Source: a phage | DNA length: 64,000 bases | Sequence record: PZ386974.1 | Reading direction: 5' to 3' (one strand) | In this document: positions 10,201-17,516 of the stretch, piece by piece | Layout: each line of letters begins with the position of its first letter | Position numbering within the stretch: the first letter of the stretch is position 1 | Position numbers and translations under genes: made by a program | The notes under the pieces: generated by a model | The model's input: only the letters and a program-made list of their open reading frames with translations | Database searches by the model: none | Told to the model about the DNA's origin: nothing

Positions 10201-10233
10201 ATTAAAATTAAAATGAAGCTCCCGAAGGAGCTT
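10201..10233 (-). terminator. intrinsic terminator, UUCG-tetraloop hairpin AAGCTCC/GGAGCTT plus U-rich tail
   Basis: Overlaps gene 39 stop codon. Confidence 0.5.
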
Positions 10234-12049
10234 AGGACATCCATTCTTTACGAAGTTCTGAATCATCACCCATCAACATTTCAAAGAGTTCTTTCCAATT
10301 TTCAGGAAGTTTAACTACGTCGTACACAGGGTTCTGAATCATTTCACGATATTCTGACTTTTCAAGGGAGCCTAATCCCTTGATGTATCGAATACTATGC
10401 TTAGGCAGTGTATATTTAACTTCTTCATACTCAGCTACAGTATAAAACCATTTTTGAGTTTTGCCAATTTGTGCAATAATTACAGGTGTTTTAACAAAGC
10501 GAATACGTCCTTGTTCAAACAATTCAGGCCAATTACTAAAGAAAGCAAGCAAAGCTGGATAAATGCTTCCAAGACCGTCATGATCGGCATCAGTCATAAT
10601 TGCAATATTACGATAGTTCGTATTCTCTGCCTTTTCACCAAGAATAAGACCTGTGATAGCACAGATATCAAAGAGCTCTTTGTTCTTCATCATATCAGCA
10701 TATGACATACCCCAGCTATTCATCACCTTACCACGTAATGGGAATCCACCATGTAGTTCACGGTCACGAACATCAATGAGATAACCAATTGCCGAATCAC
10801 CTTCTGTTAAGAACAATGTCGTATCTGCATCTTTACCACATTGGTTAGCTTTAATATGCTTATGAACCTTAGCTTTAGTTGCCTTTTTAGCTGCTTTAGT
10901 TTCTGCAGCCTTTTCTGCCGCCAATTTACGAGCTAATGCTGCTTCAACAATAGGCATAATCAAGGCTTCGTTTTTAAGAAGTGCCTGAGCAATTTTCTTA
11001 GCATCTAATTGGATATGATTACGAATATCACCATATGTTGACGTTAAACGTTCTTTAGTCTGAGAATCAAAACGCATGTTGCTCATGTCTCTAATAAACA
11101 TCAACATTGTGAGACATTCTTTAACACGAGCTTTAGTGACTTCAATACCCTTATATTTCTTTTTAATACCGGGCAAAAGATGTTCGCAGATATCATCCAT
11201 TACACATTCAACATGATGACCACCATTTTTAGTATGGATGTTATTCACATAAGTTAAATGACGGAAGCCATCTGGTGATGTTGTGAATGCTATAGAGACT
11301 TTATCATTTTCTTGAATGATGTTATCTTCGCCAAATTGTTTAGCAAATCGTTTAAAATTACCATCAACCTTTTTACCATTAAATGTGAACTTGATATCAG
11401 GATAAACGACTGCCAACGTTTGAAGTCGGTCTAAAGTAATATCTAAATAAACTTGAGATAAATTATGCTCTTCAAATGAAGAGAAATCAGGAGTGAAGAT
11501 TACTTTAGTGCCTTTACCTTTAGATTTCTTAGAAGACCATGATTTGTTTTCCATTCCGTTTGAACAGTTAACAGTGATTTCATTTTCGCCATCTGACGTG
11601 ATGCCTGTAAACAACGTAGAGAAGATATTAGTTAAACTACTCCCGACGCCGTTCATACCACCAGTCTTGCGTTCAGAGTCATCACCAAAGTTACCACCGG
11701 CCTTTGGAATAGTCCAGGCTGCTACAGGCCCAGGAATTTGTTCACCTGTTTGGTCTGTAACTAAACCTTGAGGAATACCACGTCCGTTATCTTCCACCGA
11801 AACTTGATTATTTTTAATTTGCACATCAATTTTATTTGCAAACTTAAATGATGTACGAATAGCTTCATCAACCGAGTTGTCAATAATCTCATCGATTAAT
11901 TTAACCAGACCAGGAACATATTCAACTTGCTGATATTTACCAAACAAAAAACGCTCATGTGCTTCTTTGGCCGAAGAACCAATATACATACCACTGCGTT
12001 TCTTAATATGTTCTACATCTGACAATACCTTAATTTCATTTTTAATCAT
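10232..12049 (-). CDS. 39: DNA topoisomerase II large subunit (GyrB-like), unsplit
   Basis: 605 aa single ORF; N-terminus MIKNEIKVLSDVEHIKKRSGMYIGS matches recalled T4 gp39; GAGGAGA SD. Confidence 0.9.
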   Translation of the reverse strand: MIKNEIKVLSDVEHIKKRSGMYIGSSAKEAHERFLFGKYQQVEYVPGLVKLIDEIIDNSVDEAIRTSFKFANKIDVQIKNNQVSVEDNGRGIPQGLVTDQTGEQIPGPVAAWTIPKAGGNFGDDSERKTGGMNGVGSSLTNIFSTLFTGITSDGENEITVNCSNGMENKSWSSKKSKGKGTKVIFTPDFSSFEEHNLSQVYLDITLDRLQTLAVVYPDIKFTFNGKKVDGNFKRFAKQFGEDNIIQENDKVSIAFTTSPDGFRHLTYVNNIHTKNGGHHVECVMDDICEHLLPGIKKKYKGIEVTKARVKECLTMLMFIRDMSNMRFDSQTKERLTSTYGDIRNHIQLDAKKIAQALLKNEALIMPIVEAALARKLAAEKAAETKAAKKATKAKVHKHIKANQCGKDADTTLFLTEGDSAIGYLIDVRDRELHGGFPLRGKVMNSWGMSYADMMKNKELFDICAITGLILGEKAENTNYRNIAIMTDADHDGLGSIYPALLAFFSNWPELFEQGRIRFVKTPVIIAQIGKTQKWFYTVAEYEEVKYTLPKHSIRYIKGLGSLEKSEYREMIQNPVYDVVKLPENWKELFEMLMGDDSELRKEWMS

Positions 12050-12090: not shown

Positions 12091-12112
12091 AAAGCAAAAA
12101 GGGCCGAAGCCC
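12091..12112 (-). terminator. intrinsic terminator, UUCG-tetraloop hairpin GGGC/GCCC plus UUUUU
   Basis: Between 39.1-position ORF and gene 39. Confidence 0.5.
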
Positions 12113-12535
12113 TTATTTAAATTTAATTTTCTGAAGTGCATCAATTGCAGCCAAACGCCCTTGTTCACTTTTAACTGTAATGACCACATCGCCTGATACG
12201 ATCACCGAACCATCAACAAATTCTATAGAGCCTTTTTTGAAATCGACAGCTGTATCTGGTTCCGGAACTTCTTCAAAGAATTTAAATTCTGCACCATAAA
12301 GCAGAATATCACCTTGCATACTAATGATTGTACGTCCAGGTCCATCGGTTTCAGCGGCAATCATTGAAACACCGTAACCAATCATCTCTTCTACAATAAA
12401 ATCTCTTGATAATAAAACTGTATGCAGAGTAGTGTTAAGACGTTTACCAGTTGTATTAAGAATTCTCAAGAAATTATCTTCTTGACCTTTGATAATACGA
12501 TATTTCTTACCAACTTCAAAACCTTTAAAAGCCAT
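12113..12535 (-). CDS. hypothetical protein (140 aa; 39.1 position)
   Basis: ATG start; followed by UUCG-loop terminator. Confidence 0.5.
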   Translation of the reverse strand: MAFKGFEVGKKYRIIKGQEDNFLRILNTTGKRLNTTLHTVLLSRDFIVEEMIGYGVSMIAAETDGPGRTIISMQGDILLYGAEFKFFEEVPEPDTAVDFKKGSIEFVDGSVIVSGDVVITVKSEQGRLAAIDALQKIKFK

Positions 12536-12537
12536 AA

Positions 12538-12717
12538 TTAACCCTTCTTAAGTAAGTCGTAAAAACCACCGTTCACATGTTTAGGAGCAGAAACCCGACG
12601 AGTAGACAGACGATGACATTCAGGGCAAACATCGTTTTCTCGTTCAGAAATCCTTTTAATTTTTTCATATTCATGGCCACAATCTTCAGATTGGCATTTA
12701 TAGTCGTATAACGGCAT
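12538..12717 (-). CDS. FmdB-like zinc-ribbon protein (59 aa), below track threshold
   Basis: Translation [59 protein letters not shown]; two CxxC pairs; TAATG-coupled to upstream ORF. Confidence 0.45.
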   Translation of the reverse strand: MPLYDYKCQSEDCGHEYEKIKRISERENDVCPECHRLSTRRVSAPKHVNGGFYDLLKKG

Positions 12718-13130
12718 TATTGTTCCTTAAAGTGAGCTTTCAACATTTGATACAAAGACCATGCCTGGTCATTATTTTCGATAGTAATCGTCATCACAGG
12801 AAATTCAGACAATTCGTCAAGTTCACCAGAATCTTGCTCTTCGGACGCTTGATATGGATTTCCAACTTCGTCAAAGAACTCTGCTTCATTCGTGGAGAGC
12901 CAGATAAAGTTTTCATCAAGGATATCACCACCTGTTGCGTATCCAACCATGCCAGTAGATGTCACAATTTTAGTAGGACGACCAAGATGGTCAACATCTA
13001 ATACTTTAAATGGTTCCATGCCAAGACGTCGTGCATAAATCCCATTATCAGTGTGGTCTTTAATAAACTCTTCTTGGGCACGTTTATCTATGAACTGATA
13101 CCATTTATTAACTTCAAATTTATTAGCCAT
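12717..13130 (-). CDS. hypothetical protein (137 aa; goF position)
   Basis: Track start is TTG; ATG at 13130 with GGAAGGAA SD. Confidence 0.5.
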
Positions 13131-13357
13131 TAGTAAGTTTCCTTCCAATAAGTTGTGCCGTTTTCAGTGATTTCACGGAAGATACCATAGATAGGCATTT
13201 CATCGCCGAGTTTTTCGTAAACGTAAACCACTTCGGTGTAGCATAAAAATTCGGTCCAGTTTTTCTGTACAACAACTAAATCAGGATTAAACAGAACATC
13301 TTCAAACTCATCAATGTTTGAATCAGTAGTTACGTTTTTAATGATTTGACGTTTCAT
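13130..13357 (-). CDS. hypothetical protein (75 aa; cef position)
   Basis: Track start at 13402 lies inside promoter element; ATG at 13357 with AGGAGA SD. Confidence 0.4.
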
Positions 13358-13385
13358 AATATTCTCCTCTTGTTTTGATAGGTCT

Positions 13386-13413
13386 ATAGTATCATAGGCC
13401 ATAGTTGTTGTAC
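13386..13413 (-). promoter_or_regulatory. early-type promoter cassette variant (GTACAA ... TACTAT AGACCTATCA)
   Basis: Upstream of 75-aa ORF. Confidence 0.4.
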
Positions 13414-13414
13414 A

Positions 13415-13939
13415 TCATTTTAGCAAAATAAAATCAACTTGTTCTGCCAATGAACGTCTAAACATTAATTGACAACTTCCGAGGATGAAATCAGGTGCTT
13501 CATAGACAGCGATGTAGTATCCTTTAGCTTTCAAGAGTTCAACATCCACCTGGTCATCAAACCATGCATAAACCGCGTCAACACTTTCAAATCCAAAATA
13601 GAACCCTTGAGCCCAATCTTCACTCAATTCAAATGTGTGCTCAATTCTATGGTATCTTAAGATATTTTGTTCAAGGAGTTTGTCTTCATTTACTGTAGGA
13701 CGATTAGGGACATTATAGTTGTCGCCGTGATGGTAGAAGTTACCTGAGATTATTCCGTGTTTATCAAGGAACTCCCATGTTTCTTCAGAGTTGTCGGTGC
13801 CAGACCAACCGTATGGCGAGCGAGGTTCTTTATTCCAAGAGGTTTCCCAAATTCTGACGGCTTTACCGTCTTCGATAGCAATTCCTGGTAATGATTCACG
13901 TTGAGTACAAAAACTACGTTCTACGCGGTAAACTAACAT
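13415..13939 (-). CDS. hypothetical protein (174 aa; motB position)
   Basis: ATG with GAGGAGA SD; own early promoter. Confidence 0.5.
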   Translation of the reverse strand: MLVYRVERSFCTQRESLPGIAIEDGKAVRIWETSWNKEPRSPYGWSGTDNSEETWEFLDKHGIISGNFYHHGDNYNVPNRPTVNEDKLLEQNILRYHRIEHTFELSEDWAQGFYFGFESVDAVYAWFDDQVDVELLKAKGYYIAVYEAPDFILGSCQLMFRRSLAEQVDFILLK

Positions 13940-13965
13940 ATTATTCTCCTCTGGTTGATAGGTCT

Positions 13966-13994
13966 ATAATACCAAAACCAGAGGAGAAGTAAAC
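13966..13994 (-). promoter_or_regulatory. early-type promoter cassette (GTTTAC-N17-TATTAT AGACCTATCA)
   Basis: Upstream of 174-aa ORF. Confidence 0.5.
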
Positions 13995-13998
13995 AACT

Positions 13999-14418
13999 TT
14001 ATGCGAAAGCCGCTGGGCTATATTTTTTAATTTGGAATTCAGGAACTACCATGAACTGTCCAGCAAAAACAATATTGTAGAGCTTGACGCCATCTTCTAT
14101 CCAACGGTCGCTAATAAATCCGGCGATTTGCTTAGTTTTCCATGGCGTTCCATCAGTTGCCGCAGCAATAGTGAATTCATGGTCTTTTTCAACAGAAACT
14201 GATCTGCATAGTCCCCATTTGAACGCACGTTCTTCTGGCTCAATGAACTGGCTTGAGACGTAGCCAATATTACCATTGGCATCACGAACTTTAACTTGGT
14301 TACGACCAAAAACCGGATCACTCACAGAAAGAACTTCAACCAACTTCCCGGCAACTTTAGAGCGAGAAGCAACAGATACATATACGTAATCACCTGTAGA
14401 GAGATTTACAATATTCAT
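13999..14418 (-). CDS. hypothetical protein, tandem paralog family member A (139 aa)
   Basis: Shares C-terminal motif GFISDxWIEDGxKLYNIVFxGxF with next two ORFs. Confidence 0.5.
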   Translation of the reverse strand: MNIVNLSTGDYVYVSVASRSKVAGKLVEVLSVSDPVFGRNQVKVRDANGNIGYVSSQFIEPEERAFKWGLCRSVSVEKDHEFTIAAATDGTPWKTKQIAGFISDRWIEDGVKLYNIVFAGQFMVVPEFQIKKYSPAAFA

Positions 14419-14427
14419 AATAATTCC

Positions 14428-14892
14428 TTAAGCTTTACGAGGAGACACATAGCGAGTGATTTCAGATTCTTTAACAACTCGGAAGTCACCTAAGAATACG
14501 ATATTGTATAACTTTTCACCATCTTCAACCCATTGGTCACTAATGAAGCCACACATAGTATCAGTTTTGCTTGGATAACCGTATTCATCGATGAAGTCAA
14601 ATTCTTTATCGGTTATAAATTCAACGCCTTTGCAAAGGGCCCATTTGAACTGTGTAGTAGGCTCAACGATATCGCTTGAAGCAAAGTGGGCACTTACACG
14701 AGTTTCCAAGAATTTAGGACTTACATAGGCGAACTGAGTTTCAGTTTTTCCAGAACTAGGAATGATTCGAACTTTAACTTCTTTAATACGTCCCATGCCA
14801 TTTGTGCGAAGTCCGACAACTTCAACCAGACGACCTGCGGCTTTAGAACGGGATGCAGTTGATACACGCTTAATTTCACCAATATTAATCAT
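14428..14892 (-). CDS. hypothetical protein, tandem paralog family member B (154 aa)
   Basis: Start moved to ATG at 14892 by alignment with paralog A (MINIGEIKRVSTASRSKAAGRLVEV); track start lies in promoter element. Confidence 0.5.
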   Translation of the reverse strand: MINIGEIKRVSTASRSKAAGRLVEVVGLRTNGMGRIKEVKVRIIPSSGKTETQFAYVSPKFLETRVSAHFASSDIVEPTTQFKWALCKGVEFITDKEFDFIDEYGYPSKTDTMCGFISDQWVEDGEKLYNIVFLGDFRVVKESEITRYVSPRKA

Positions 14893-14923
14893 ATTTTTTC
14901 TCTCTTTGTTTAAATTGAATTCA

Positions 14924-14951
14924 TTATACTCCATCCATCCTTGGATGTACA
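14924..14951 (-). promoter_or_regulatory. early-type promoter cassette variant (TGTACA ... TATAAT)
   Basis: Upstream of paralog B; overlaps track-predicted N-terminal extension. Confidence 0.4.
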
Positions 14952-14954
14952 ACA

Positions 14955-15449
14955 TTAATTTAGAATATTAACCATAGCACTACGTGGAACTACACTAAAA
15001 TCACCTGCATGAACAACGTTCAGAAGTTCAACACCGTCTTCAATCCACTGATCAGTTACCCATCCACTCACTGGACCTGCGAACGGACGTCGAATTGAAA
15101 CAGCTTTACACAACAAATCAGTAGGCTCAATAGGCTTAATCAGAGTACCGTACATACAAGCGATATCCATATCAATACAGATGTCTTTAACGGGTTCTAC
15201 TTCTTCAATCAACAGTTCAAAGTCAGTGCTTGGAATGGCGGTAGTAGAAATTGTACCGTGTGAATTTTTAATTTCTAAGAATAACCAAGGGCCTTCAGCT
15301 TGTTTGATGAAGTTAACAATAGTGAAACTATTACCTTGAGTGGCACCTAAAATTTCACAAAACTTTTCATAAGCTCGCACTGAAGCACCGTACCAGTTGA
15401 TTTGTTTTTCGTCTTTCATGATGTAAGTAGCCGTAGTATTGATGTTCAT
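14955..15449 (-). CDS. hypothetical protein, tandem paralog family member C (164 aa)
   Basis: C-terminal motif WVTDQWIEDGVELLNVVHAGDF shared with paralogs A/B. Confidence 0.5.
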   Translation of the reverse strand: MNINTTATYIMKDEKQINWYGASVRAYEKFCEILGATQGNSFTIVNFIKQAEGPWLFLEIKNSHGTISTTAIPSTDFELLIEEVEPVKDICIDMDIACMYGTLIKPIEPTDLLCKAVSIRRPFAGPVSGWVTDQWIEDGVELLNVVHAGDFSVVPRSAMVNILN

Positions 15450-15480
15450 AATGTTTTTCCTGTTTGGTTAAGATAGAAAG

Positions 15481-15510
15481 ATTATACTCCAACCATCCTT
15501 GGTTGTAAAC
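15481..15510 (-). promoter_or_regulatory. early-type promoter cassette (GTTTAC-N18-TATAAT) with spacer hairpin CAACCA/TGGTTG
   Basis: 30 bp identical to 56985..57014; upstream of paralog C. Confidence 0.5.
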
Positions 15511-15515
15511 TGATT

Positions 15516-16193
15516 TTATCGCTGTTTTACACTTAACGGGTCAGGATTCTCAGGGACATCTTCAAGGCCAAGCGCATAACGCTGAGCATATTTTAACATC
15601 AAAATATCTTTAGCACAATCATGAATACTATCATGAGCAACGAATCCTTTTAGCGTACCCATCGGTAATGGACACATACTTAATCCTCGTGTCAACGAGT
15701 AAGCTTCGATTGCCGTACGAATATCACGTTGAGCCCAGAATTTAACCGGTTCTAATTTATCAGTATCAATCTCTGGTTCAAGAACACCTTCATCACGATA
15801 GAGGTCACGAATCAAATCGACCAAGATCGGGAAGTCAAAGCTCATACCGCGGCACCACATCTGTGATTTCCATTGGTCAACTTTATTAGCTCGACAATAA
15901 TCTAAAAAGATTTTAATGCCTTCAAGCGTAGTGACATCGTCTTCAGACGGAGCCAAGTTTTTACGCGCTTCAGCCGATTGTTCTTTCCACCATTTCATAG
16001 TGGATTTAGCGAAAACTCGCTTCCCTTTCTGAGAAGCTAAATTAAATTTAATTCGCTTACCTCGTTGAACAAGTTCTTCAAATGATTCAACAACTTCAGG
16101 GTCGGAATTATATGCAATAACCGCAAGGTCAATAACAGCCGCTTTTGATGTATTGCCGAATGTTTCAAAATCTATAATAACATCAGTGCTCAT
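15516..16193 (-). CDS. dexA: exonuclease A (DEDD-type)
   Basis: 225 aa; N-terminal DFETFG exonuclease motif; adjacent to dda as in T4. Confidence 0.75.
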   Translation of the reverse strand: MSTDVIIDFETFGNTSKAAVIDLAVIAYNSDPEVVESFEELVQRGKRIKFNLASQKGKRVFAKSTMKWWKEQSAEARKNLAPSEDDVTTLEGIKIFLDYCRANKVDQWKSQMWCRGMSFDFPILVDLIRDLYRDEGVLEPEIDTDKLEPVKFWAQRDIRTAIEAYSLTRGLSMCPLPMGTLKGFVAHDSIHDCAKDILMLKYAQRYALGLEDVPENPDPLSVKQR

Positions 16194-16202
16194 AATTTTC
16201 TC

Positions 16203-17516
16203 TCAAATAAAATGGACGTCAAACCGGCCACGAGTTGTGCCGACATACAATAACTGTTTAGCTAATTCCGAATCAGCATAATGGATACACGGTGTATAAA
16301 CAAAGGCCGTGTCAACAGACATACCCTGGGCCTTATGGAAGGTTGATACTGGTAGTGCCTTCACCTTAGTGAACATACGTTTAGCATCCCAGAATTCGCT
16401 CCATGGAGCTTTACCACCTTTATTCCAGAATTTGTATGTTTCTGCGGCCTTAGCCAAAAACAAATTGAATTTATAAAGCTCTTCTTCTGAAGAAATAACC
16501 TTTATATCTTCGCGGATGTATTCTTCATCATCCCCATATGTTTCTACTGTAAGATTCCAGTATCGTATCATATATTCGCCTGAAACACCACGTGCTTTAA
16601 CGAATGTAGACGTTTCTACAGCATCTCGAATACGAACGAATTGCCCGTTATTGAAAAGCATTTCGGTCATATTTTTACAATCTAGCTTATATGTCTTAGT
16701 AAATGGCTCTTGTAGAACAATGACTTCGTCTTTAATAAATGGTTTTTCTGTTTCAAGAAGTTTTCGGCGAATAATTGAATTTAACTTGTCCACCGACTTA
16801 TTTGTGAATGCCATCATTCGATTTTCGAAAAGGTCTTCAGGAGTTTTAACGACATTAAAATAGTTCGTCATATACGATTTAAGGTCTGTATATCCATGAA
16901 CACCATGCCCGTCAACTACTTTATCGTAAATCCATTTGCCATTACGAATATCAGTCGCAACATCAATAATTGGTGCATTGCTACGTTTAACTTCTGTAAG
17001 GTTGCATTGCACGAAGTCTTTGTGAGTGAAGAAAGGACTTAGATACGCAGTTGATTCGCCTGGATCTACCGGACGAATCTGGCATCGGTCGCCGATTCCA
17101 ATTACTGTACACCATTTAGGGATACTAGCTAACATTATTTTAAACAGAGAACGGTCGCACATTGACGCTTCATCAAATAACAGTACACGACACAAGGCTA
17201 AGTCGGGAACCTTTTTCTGTTCAAACAATACGTTTTCTTCGTATGTAGTTGGGTTGATTTTAAGAATGCTATGAATAGTCGATGCTTCTTGACCAGCAAG
17301 TTTGCTTAGAACCTTTTTAGCAGCATGTGTAGGGGCTGCTAAAATAATGCCTGATTCTCCGGCAGAAATAAGAGCTTCAACGATGAATCTAGTAAGGGTT
17401 GTTTTACCTGTACCAGCAGGCCCATTAATAGTTACGTGATGTTTCTTTTCTTTAATAGCTTTCATAACAACGTTGAAGGCGTTTTTCTGGCCTTCAGTCA
17501 AATCATCAAATGTCAT
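16203..17516 (-). CDS. dda: Dda DNA helicase (SF1)
   Basis: 437 aa; MTFDDLTEGQKNAF...GPAGTGKTT matches recalled T4 Dda. Confidence 0.9.
   Translation of the reverse strand: MTFDDLTEGQKNAFNVVMKAIKEKKHHVTINGPAGTGKTTLTRFIVEALISAGESGIILAAPTHAAKKVLSKLAGQEASTIHSILKINPTTYEENVLFEQKKVPDLALCRVLLFDEASMCDRSLFKIMLASIPKWCTVIGIGDRCQIRPVDPGESTAYLSPFFTHKDFVQCNLTEVKRSNAPIIDVATDIRNGKWIYDKVVDGHGVHGYTDLKSYMTNYFNVVKTPEDLFENRMMAFTNKSVDKLNSIIRRKLLETEKPFIKDEVIVLQEPFTKTYKLDCKNMTEMLFNNGQFVRIRDAVETSTFVKARGVSGEYMIRYWNLTVETYGDDEEYIREDIKVISSEEELYKFNLFLAKAAETYKFWNKGGKAPWSEFWDAKRMFTKVKALPVSTFHKAQGMSVDTAFVYTPCIHYADSELAKQLLYVGTTRGRFDVHFI

Follow-up and report, generated by a model that had tools for sequence, protein, structure and literature searches.

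Three adjacent open reading frames beside dexA in a 64,000-nucleotide stretch of phage DNA (sequence record PZ386974.1; hereafter the window) encode proteins of 139, 154 and 164 aa. An initial annotation, made from the letters alone, had noted a common C-terminal motif in them and proposed that they are tandem, diversifying paralogues of a host-takeover or anti-defence family, each with its own promoter. The locus raises the questions of whether this kinship is real, which known genes the three frames correspond to, and what such a set of proteins might do for the phage.

Gene identities and neighbourhood

The motif is present in all three proteins (GFISDRWIEDGVKLYNIVFAGQF in the 139-aa, GFISDQWVEDGEKLYNIVFLGDF in the 154-aa and GWVTDQWIEDGVELLNVVHAGDF in the 164-aa protein), and pairwise alignment confirmed its significance. 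The 139- and 154-aa proteins align from end to end (BLASTP E = 2e-31, 42% identity); the 164-aa protein aligns through its C-terminal part only, with E = 3e-11 to the 139-aa and 2e-11 to the 154-aa protein, so that only its C-terminal third is common to the other two. All three pass the Pfam family PF17613 ("motB, modifier of transcription"; gathering score 25 bits), with 141, 74.5 and 35.6 bits for the 154-, 139- and 164-aa proteins, respectively. Because of these pairwise E-values and family scores, the paralogy of the trio is real, far beyond chance. The homologue lists of the trio contain PF17613 proteins only, and a tblastn search with all three proteins found no fourth copy of the motif in the 64-kb window. 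Judged by sequence, the three genes are the motB.1 - motB - second motB cluster of Mosigvirus, family PF17613, and their description as tandem paralogues holds, in a region of this T-even phage that is early and dispensable.

A 3-kb stretch shows 96-97% nucleotide identity to the Mosigvirus phages moskry, APCEc01 and PhAPEC2, and because of this identity the window can be assigned to an RB69-like (Mosigvirus) T-even phage, ~97% identical to moskry. The features of the locus are collected in Table 1. The gene order in the window is dexA - motB.1 - motB - second motB - motB.2 - cef, and that of T4 is dexA - motB.2 - motB.1 - motB - cef, so cef has motB.2 as its neighbour in the window and motB in T4.

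Table 1. Genes and promoter cassettes around the motB cluster (positions in the window)
Feature	Position	Strand	Remarks
dda	16203-17516	minus	
dexA	15516-16193	minus	
Early-type promoter cassette of motB.1	15509-15481	minus	TTTACA, 17-nt spacer, TATAAT; 11/12 match
motB.1 homologue, 164 aa	14955-15449	minus	
Early-type promoter cassette of motB	14951-14923	minus	TGTACA, 17-nt spacer, TATAAT; 10/12 match
motB orthologue, 154 aa	14428-14892	minus	
Second motB copy, 139 aa	13999-14418	minus	
Third cassette	13993-13966		belongs to motB.2
motB.2 homologue, 174 aa	13415-13939	minus	
cef, goF, 39.2, 140-aa ORF	downstream of the motB.2 homologue	minus	
gene 39	10232-12049	minus	

The 154-aa protein matches PF17613 with E = 3.9e-41 (residues 1-149 aligned to positions 2-157 of the 162-position profile) and phrog_1671 with E = 2e-65, and is 50% identical to T4-type MotB. 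A longer, 175-aa reading of this gene from the ATG at 14955 was rejected: that start lies upstream of the promoter -35 box, the Pfam and homologue alignments begin at the 154-aa start, and RB69 motB is annotated from the equivalent methionine (151 aa). The 139-aa protein belongs to the same families (PF17613, E = 1.2e-20; phrog_1671, E = 1.4e-50). In ~208 phage records, from Mosigvirus and some Tequatrovirus, there are orthologues of this second copy with at least 80% identity; a restriction to Mosigvirus, suggested by an identity gap among its homologues, is ruled out by its presence in the Tequatrovirus phages PP01 and Aplg8. The 164-aa protein matches phrog_2333 over residues 1-164 (E = 6e-82), with its PF17613 match confined to residues 85-159, and is 47% identical to T4 motB.1, the phrog_2333 gene directly upstream of motB in T4, over 98% of its length (residues 3-164).

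The initial annotation had placed motB outside the trio, in the flanking 174-aa frame. This frame has no PF17613 match and falls in phrog_1106, as does T4 motB.2, the T4 gene between dexA and motB.1, with 34% identity to T4 MotB.2; its RB69 counterpart, RB69p009, is annotated as motB.2. The name motB is thereby ruled out for it and belongs within the trio, and the motB.2 homologue, by its family assignment, adjoins the paralogue set and is no member of it. As a calibration case, reading of the raw sequence found a real domain family and misnamed motB by position.

Domain make-up and the shared C-terminal domain

The AF2 model of the 154-aa protein (mean pLDDT 82.4, 34 sequences in the alignment) predicts an N-terminal KOW/SH3-like barrel at residues 1-64, with strands at 7-57, a net charge of +7 and a pI of 10.7, followed by a disordered linker (65-79) and a C-terminal domain (80-154) with a net charge of -4 and five strands within 89-149. 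The corresponding KOW domain of T4 MotB carries a net charge of +5. The N-terminal domain of the 139-aa protein aligns to the KOW/SH3-like barrel of the 154-aa protein, which gives it the same two-domain layout as MotB; its net charge is 0, and its sequence has weak SH3 matches (Pex13 SH3, E = 0.005; PF08239, E = 0.08).

In the model of the 164-aa protein (mean pLDDT 78.6, 25 sequences in the alignment), N-terminal strands and helices at residues 8-82 precede a disordered linker (86-106) and a MotB-type C-terminal domain at ~107-164, with five strands within 116-163. The N-terminal domain is thus modelled as a distinct helix-containing beta-barrel, unlike the KOW/SH3-like barrel of MotB. In a Foldseek comparison with the BFVD viral models, T4 MotB.1 (P39415) was recovered with E = 7e-10, together with MotB proteins. 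Kim et al. (2025, PMC12152347) described the MotB.1 N-terminal domain as a five-stranded barrel of the LSm-like type, with GoF and Frd.2 among its relatives.

The C-terminal domain common to all three proteins comprises ~55-75 residues in five beta strands, with net charges of -4, -3 and +1 across the trio. Its near-invariant core reads G-[FW]-[IV]-[ST]-D-x-W-[IV]-E-D-G-x-[KE]-L-[YL]-N-[IV]-V, and the columns G, D, W, E, G, L, N, V, G and V are invariant among 21 diverse C-terminal domains that include those of the three window proteins. An exhaustive search of 1.84 billion cluster representatives with a profile built from 21 diverse C-terminal domains gave only 30 matches at E <= 0.001. Of these, 27 are small (43-251 aa), and every one inspected, by Pfam scan or by sequence, was MotB-like; the other three, an Ig-repeat protein and two phage-tail proteins, are long and look spurious or marginal. 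This search of the 1.84 billion representatives gave no lead to function from relatives outside the family, and the most distant family members still combine a KOW motif with the C-terminal domain.

Searches of solved structures with the single proteins or with family profiles gave no sequence match, those near the threshold being weak SH3 similarities only. HHpred had earlier predicted an OB-fold of the cold-shock type for the MotB C-terminal domain (PMC7827196), the C-terminal domain of eIF5A being one example of this fold. Among the top 60 entries of either list obtained with the 154- and 164-aa models, in output that does not indicate the aligned domain, none is described as an OB-fold, and on these models the earlier suggestion is not favoured.

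Promoters, selection and domain exchange

Two early-type promoter cassettes lie in the locus, one before motB.1 and one before motB (Table 1). Both calls are consensus matches, from a scan that returned 20 sites against 16.2 expected in shuffles over the whole region; they rank first and second among the promoter matches of the 5.6 kb and fall exactly in the intergenic gaps. The two cassettes form a 57-nt direct repeat (motB.1-side copy at 15451-15507; repeat family D1) with 75% identity, and the motB.1 cassette is conserved in RB69 and moskry. Each spacer also holds a 6-bp hairpin, CAACCA/TGGTTG for motB.1 (-5.5 kcal/mol, z = -2.7) and CATCCA/TGGATG for motB (-5.3 kcal/mol, z = -2.6). The second is a compensatory variant of the first, in which both sides of the stem have changed and the stem has been kept.

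From these matches we infer that motB.1 and motB are early genes, each behind a T4-type early promoter. The proposal of a separate promoter for every member of the trio stands for these two genes and fails for the 139-aa gene, upstream of which the scan found no promoter-like site; the third cassette that may have been counted, at 13993-13966, is that of motB.2. This gene starts 9 nt past the motB stop codon and is preceded by the Shine-Dalgarno sequence AAGGA; the same spacing is found in Tequatrovirus PP01 and Aplg8, where the second copy likewise directly follows motB. Since the 139-aa gene lacks a cassette of its own and the 9-nt gap is kept in these two phages, motB and the second copy probably form a two-gene transcription unit, from which the second copy would be co-transcribed.

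In comparison with four Mosigvirus relatives, motB.1 has a dN/dS of 0.13-0.28, motB of 0.08-0.25 and the second copy of 0.08-0.16. All three genes are under purifying selection, gene-wide, and gene-wide positive selection on the trio was rejected on the range of 0.08-0.28. In this sense, and contrary to what had been supposed, the paralogues are not diversifying; their variety comes about through the exchange of domains and alleles. Among close relatives, dS runs from 0.13 to 0.59 in motB and the second copy, for the most part above the 0.03-0.12 of the flanking dexA and dda, which fits allele replacement by recombination.

Homologues of about 144, 165, 180 and 250 aa share up to 86% identity with the C-terminal domain of the 164-aa protein and have unrelated N-terminal domains, and in some homologues a KOW head of the MotB type precedes a tail of the MotB.1 type. 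The metagenomic proteins P0032, P0036 and P0099 are chimeric, each with a MotB head followed, from varying junctions, by the second copy's C-terminal allele, and one chimeric MotB is the sole motB of a contig with T4-type gene order. On sequence comparison, the diversity of the family is attributable to the swapping of N-terminal domains and C-terminal alleles, and the natural chimeras indicate that the second-copy C-terminal allele moves between genes and genera.

Proposed function and comparison with known systems

T4 MotB is toxic to E. coli and binds host and modified phage DNA without sequence preference; its co-purification with H-NS and StpA requires DNA, it overrides the H-NS footprint at proV, 75 host genes, about one third of them H-NS-repressed, are up in its presence, and burst size is ~2-fold higher with it (PMC6070864, PMC7827196). 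These properties uphold the assignment of the genes to a host-takeover family. By analogy, the 154-aa orthologue would act like T4 MotB, as an abundant early protein that coats DNA non-specifically; it would alter the placement of H-NS and StpA on the DNA, de-repress part of the H-NS regulon and improve burst size. The functional data all come from T4 MotB, with which the 154-aa protein shares 50% identity and the 139-aa protein 36%.

Within this scheme, the basic KOW domain of MotB may be the DNA contact, and the shared C-terminal domain a common module for partner binding or self-association. By this indirect argument from charge, DNA contact is more likely to reside in the KOW head because the head is strongly basic and the C-terminal domain acidic to neutral, and partner or self-binding is the more likely role of the tail because of its net charges and its invariant D, W, E, D/E, G, L, N and V residues. 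Plain DNA coating is probably not the role of MotB.1, with its pI of 4.6, nor of the second copy, whose N-terminal domain has a net charge of 0. As the best explanation of the locus we hold, with good confidence, that it is a PF17613 motB.1 - motB - second-motB cluster with the domain make-up described here, expressed early, and that a MotB-type mechanism applies to the 154-aa protein.

It is unlikely that the paralogues are instead effectors in an arms race, diversifying for anti-defence or counter-silencing with each copy tuned to another host target. Such a reading would suit the dispensable, mosaic early region in which the trio lies, the combination of a single C-terminal domain with four or more kinds of N-terminal domain (categories 1-4 of PMC7827196), the allele exchange indicated by the raised dS of motB and the second copy, the natural chimeric MotB proteins, and the fact that MotB lifts H-NS silencing, a defence-like barrier (PMC7827196). 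The dN/dS values, however, give no gene-wide positive selection, H-NS-controlled CRISPR loci are unaffected by MotB (PMC7827196), and there is no report of a known defence system being blocked. Neither the trio nor MotB.2 matched any PADLOC family at E <= 0.1, which is a weak test because PADLOC covers defence and not anti-defence proteins. In addition, T4 delta-motB.1 has the burst size and latent period of the wild type, which motB.1 amber mutants equal in growth (PMC12152347). The anti-defence part of the initial annotation is not directly supported, the nearest thing to it being the relief of H-NS silencing by MotB. Alternatively, one or two of the copies might be decaying, functionless remnants of duplication, as the non-essential nature of the region in T4, the frameshifted motB.1 of the RB69 reference and the loss of the linker and of the basic N-terminal charge in the second copy could suggest. 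We disfavour this reading and consider it highly improbable, given an intact trio in the window and most relatives, dN/dS well under 1, and the second copy's conservation across its ~208 records.

It is also rather unlikely that the C-terminal domain is an assembly or partner module through which MotB.1 and the second copy join or cap MotB and so modulate its coating of the nucleoid. This is a purely inferential proposal. The most conserved residues of the family do form an acidic/aromatic patch, invariant in all categories, and the C-terminal domain is net acidic and the N-terminal domain of MotB strongly basic; the genes stay adjacent, with the 9-nt spacing between motB and the second copy fixed in two genera, and on gels MotB.1 migrates both as a monomer and as a dimer (PMC12152347). 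On the other hand, AlphaFold3 gave no confident MotB.1 homomultimers (PMC12152347), and the absence of a second motB copy from T4, together with the single hybrid gene of some phages, means that a complex of three parts cannot be obligatory. A related conjecture, which we hold to be quite improbable, is that the acidic/aromatic core is a docking module and not a DNA-binding surface, so that the trio would co-assemble or bind one basic host partner; if true, the cluster would amount to a small phage 'chromatin' system, in which the subunit with the basic KOW domain coats DNA, next to a variant of neutral charge and an acidic subunit whose head is LSm-like, of RNA type.

The reading we prefer, a MotB-type cluster, carries little weight as a discovery, the cluster being already in the literature and in the RB69 annotation. 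Patterson-West et al. (2021, PMC7827196) aligned 102 phage homologues and reported that the C-terminal domain is conserved between MotB and MotB.1 and the N-terminal domains differ, that one of motB and motB.1 is probably a duplicate of the other, and that RB69 has two motB and one motB.1; the paralogy, the shared domain and the RB69-type gene content are thus already known. Of use to those who work on MotB are the location of the positive charge in the KOW domain, the shared domain being acidic, and a clarification of the RB69 29-aa peptide given below.

In comparison with known systems, the 154-aa protein is the orthologue of T4 MotB (PF17613, phrog_1671, UniProt MOTB_BPT4): both consist of a KOW-like N-terminal domain, a linker and a C-terminal domain, and both are encoded by early genes near dexA and cef. 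T4 has one motB, whereas the phage of the window has two in tandem. The second of these encodes a full-length, more distant paralogue of T4 MotB (36% identity), which lacks the linker (almost deleted), the IIPxxGK insertion and the basic N-terminal charge. T4 MotB.1 (13.8 kDa protein P39415; phrog_2333; "Category 2" of Patterson-West et al. 2021) is likewise encoded directly upstream of motB, and shares with the 164-aa protein its acidic pI of 4.6 and an ELLNVVH-type C-terminal domain. The 164-aa protein is 21 residues longer and has an extra linker segment, 'DMDIACMYGTLIKP', which is absent from T4 MotB.1 and N-terminal in other family members.

The promoter cassettes resemble the promoter-early stem-loops (PeSLs) of RB49 and phi1, repeated promoter-hairpin units that also stand before non-essential early genes (PMC2839356), and both kinds of element offer short homologies available for module shuffling. 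They differ in that a PeSL has a stable, G/C-rich terminator stem-loop beside its sigma-70-like early promoter, the part that the window cassettes do have, whereas the window cassettes have a 6-bp, AT-rich stem within the spacer and no T tract. By their sequence, the window cassettes fall outside the PeSL definition and are analogous to PeSLs only, in line with the earlier designation of such T-even elements as analogues, not homologues, of PeSLs (PMC2839356).

The RB69 cluster motB.1 / ORF012 / motB / ORF010 (NC_004928, RB69p010-p013) is identical to that of the window in genes, order and promoters, and amino-acid identity is ~91-97% (motB 91%, second copy and its orthologue ORF010 93.5%, motB.1 97% over the first 123 residues). 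The RB69 annotation names the orthologues p013 = motB.1, p011 = motB and p010 = "MotB-like, similar to T4 MotB". In the RB69 reference, two 1-nt (single-T) insertions split motB.1 into frames of 132 and 29 aa; both insertions are absent from the window and from moskry, and a tblastn search of the 64-kb window did not find the 29-aa peptide. The RB69 29-aa "Category 3" peptide is the C-terminal end of a frameshifted motB.1, a clarification that is new as far as we can see, whereas the window gene is intact.

The second motB copy and natural chimeras

The 139-aa second motB copy is present in Mosigvirus and in some Tequatrovirus phages. In the Tequatrovirus phages PP01 (L007:2015-2920) and Aplg8 (L008:2018-2920) it lies directly behind motB, with the same 9-nt gap as in the window, while motB.2 stays at its T4 position. 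The pair of motB and its second copy thus behaves as a single module. Three metagenomic MotB proteins (P0032, P0036, and P0099) have an N-terminal part of MotB fused with the second copy's C-terminal allele, each with a different junction, and one of these is the sole motB of a contig with T4-type gene order (L006:1373-1894). These natural chimeras point to recombination between the tandem copies, together with exchange across genera.

The 164-aa motB.1 and its RB69 counterpart

In the family alignment, a short conserved linker segment of the 164-aa motB.1, DMDIACMYGTLIKP, is either missing from the other members or found at their extreme N-terminus; AF2 modelled it as a low-confidence helix. 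Compared with the window (14955-15449) and the Mosigvirus relative moskry, the matching stretch of the RB69 reference (L004:3877-4373; NC_004928 8376-8872) carries two single-T insertions, which divide motB.1 into the two ORFs annotated there, a 132-aa motB.1 and the 29-aa ORF012. ORF012, a piece of the split motB.1, is the peptide that was counted as a distinct family member, "Category 3" (Patterson-West 2021, PMC7827196). The insertions reflect either a genuine pseudogene or mistakes in the 2003 sequence.

Leaders of motB.2 and cef

The motB.2 leader is predicted to fold into a long hairpin (z = -6.0; equally stable shuffles, 0/200) that pairs the Shine-Dalgarno region AACCAGAGGAG with the promoter spacer. 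Since the -10 box comes after the hairpin's 5' arm, the ribosome site would be sequestered solely in read-through transcripts from upstream. This site contains GGAG, the target of RegB nuclease.

A 40-nt cassette (-10 box, leader, and Shine-Dalgarno) is 90% identical before cef (13355-13394) and before motB.2 (13937-13974). Since the cef-side cassette falls within the 90-aa reading of cef, a start at 13402 is disfavoured, and cef most likely begins at ATG 13357, which gives the 75-aa product of the moskry and RB69 annotations.

Sequence features located in the window
Feature	Position	Strand	Details
Hairpin AAGGGCCGAAGCCCTT	12099-12114		symmetric, G+C-rich; between goF-like ORF and gene 39
goF-like 140-aa ORF	12113-12535	-	phrog_622
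goF	12717-13130	-	phrog_622
motB.2 leader hairpin	13940-13998	-	~13 bp, -13.2 kcal/mol
Linker segment DMDIACMYGTLIKP	15134-15175		residues 92-105 of 164-aa motB.1

A goF duplication adjoining gene 39

Like motB, goF is duplicated in the window: the GoF family phrog_622 is hit by the 140-aa ORF adjoining gene 39 with E = 2e-19 (goF itself, E = 8e-40), and the 39.2 zinc-ribbon gene is located between both copies. The AAGGGCCGAAGCCCTT hairpin is bordered by T runs on both strands and looks like a two-way terminator. In T4, the position of the 140-aa goF-like ORF is held by the unrelated 39.1.
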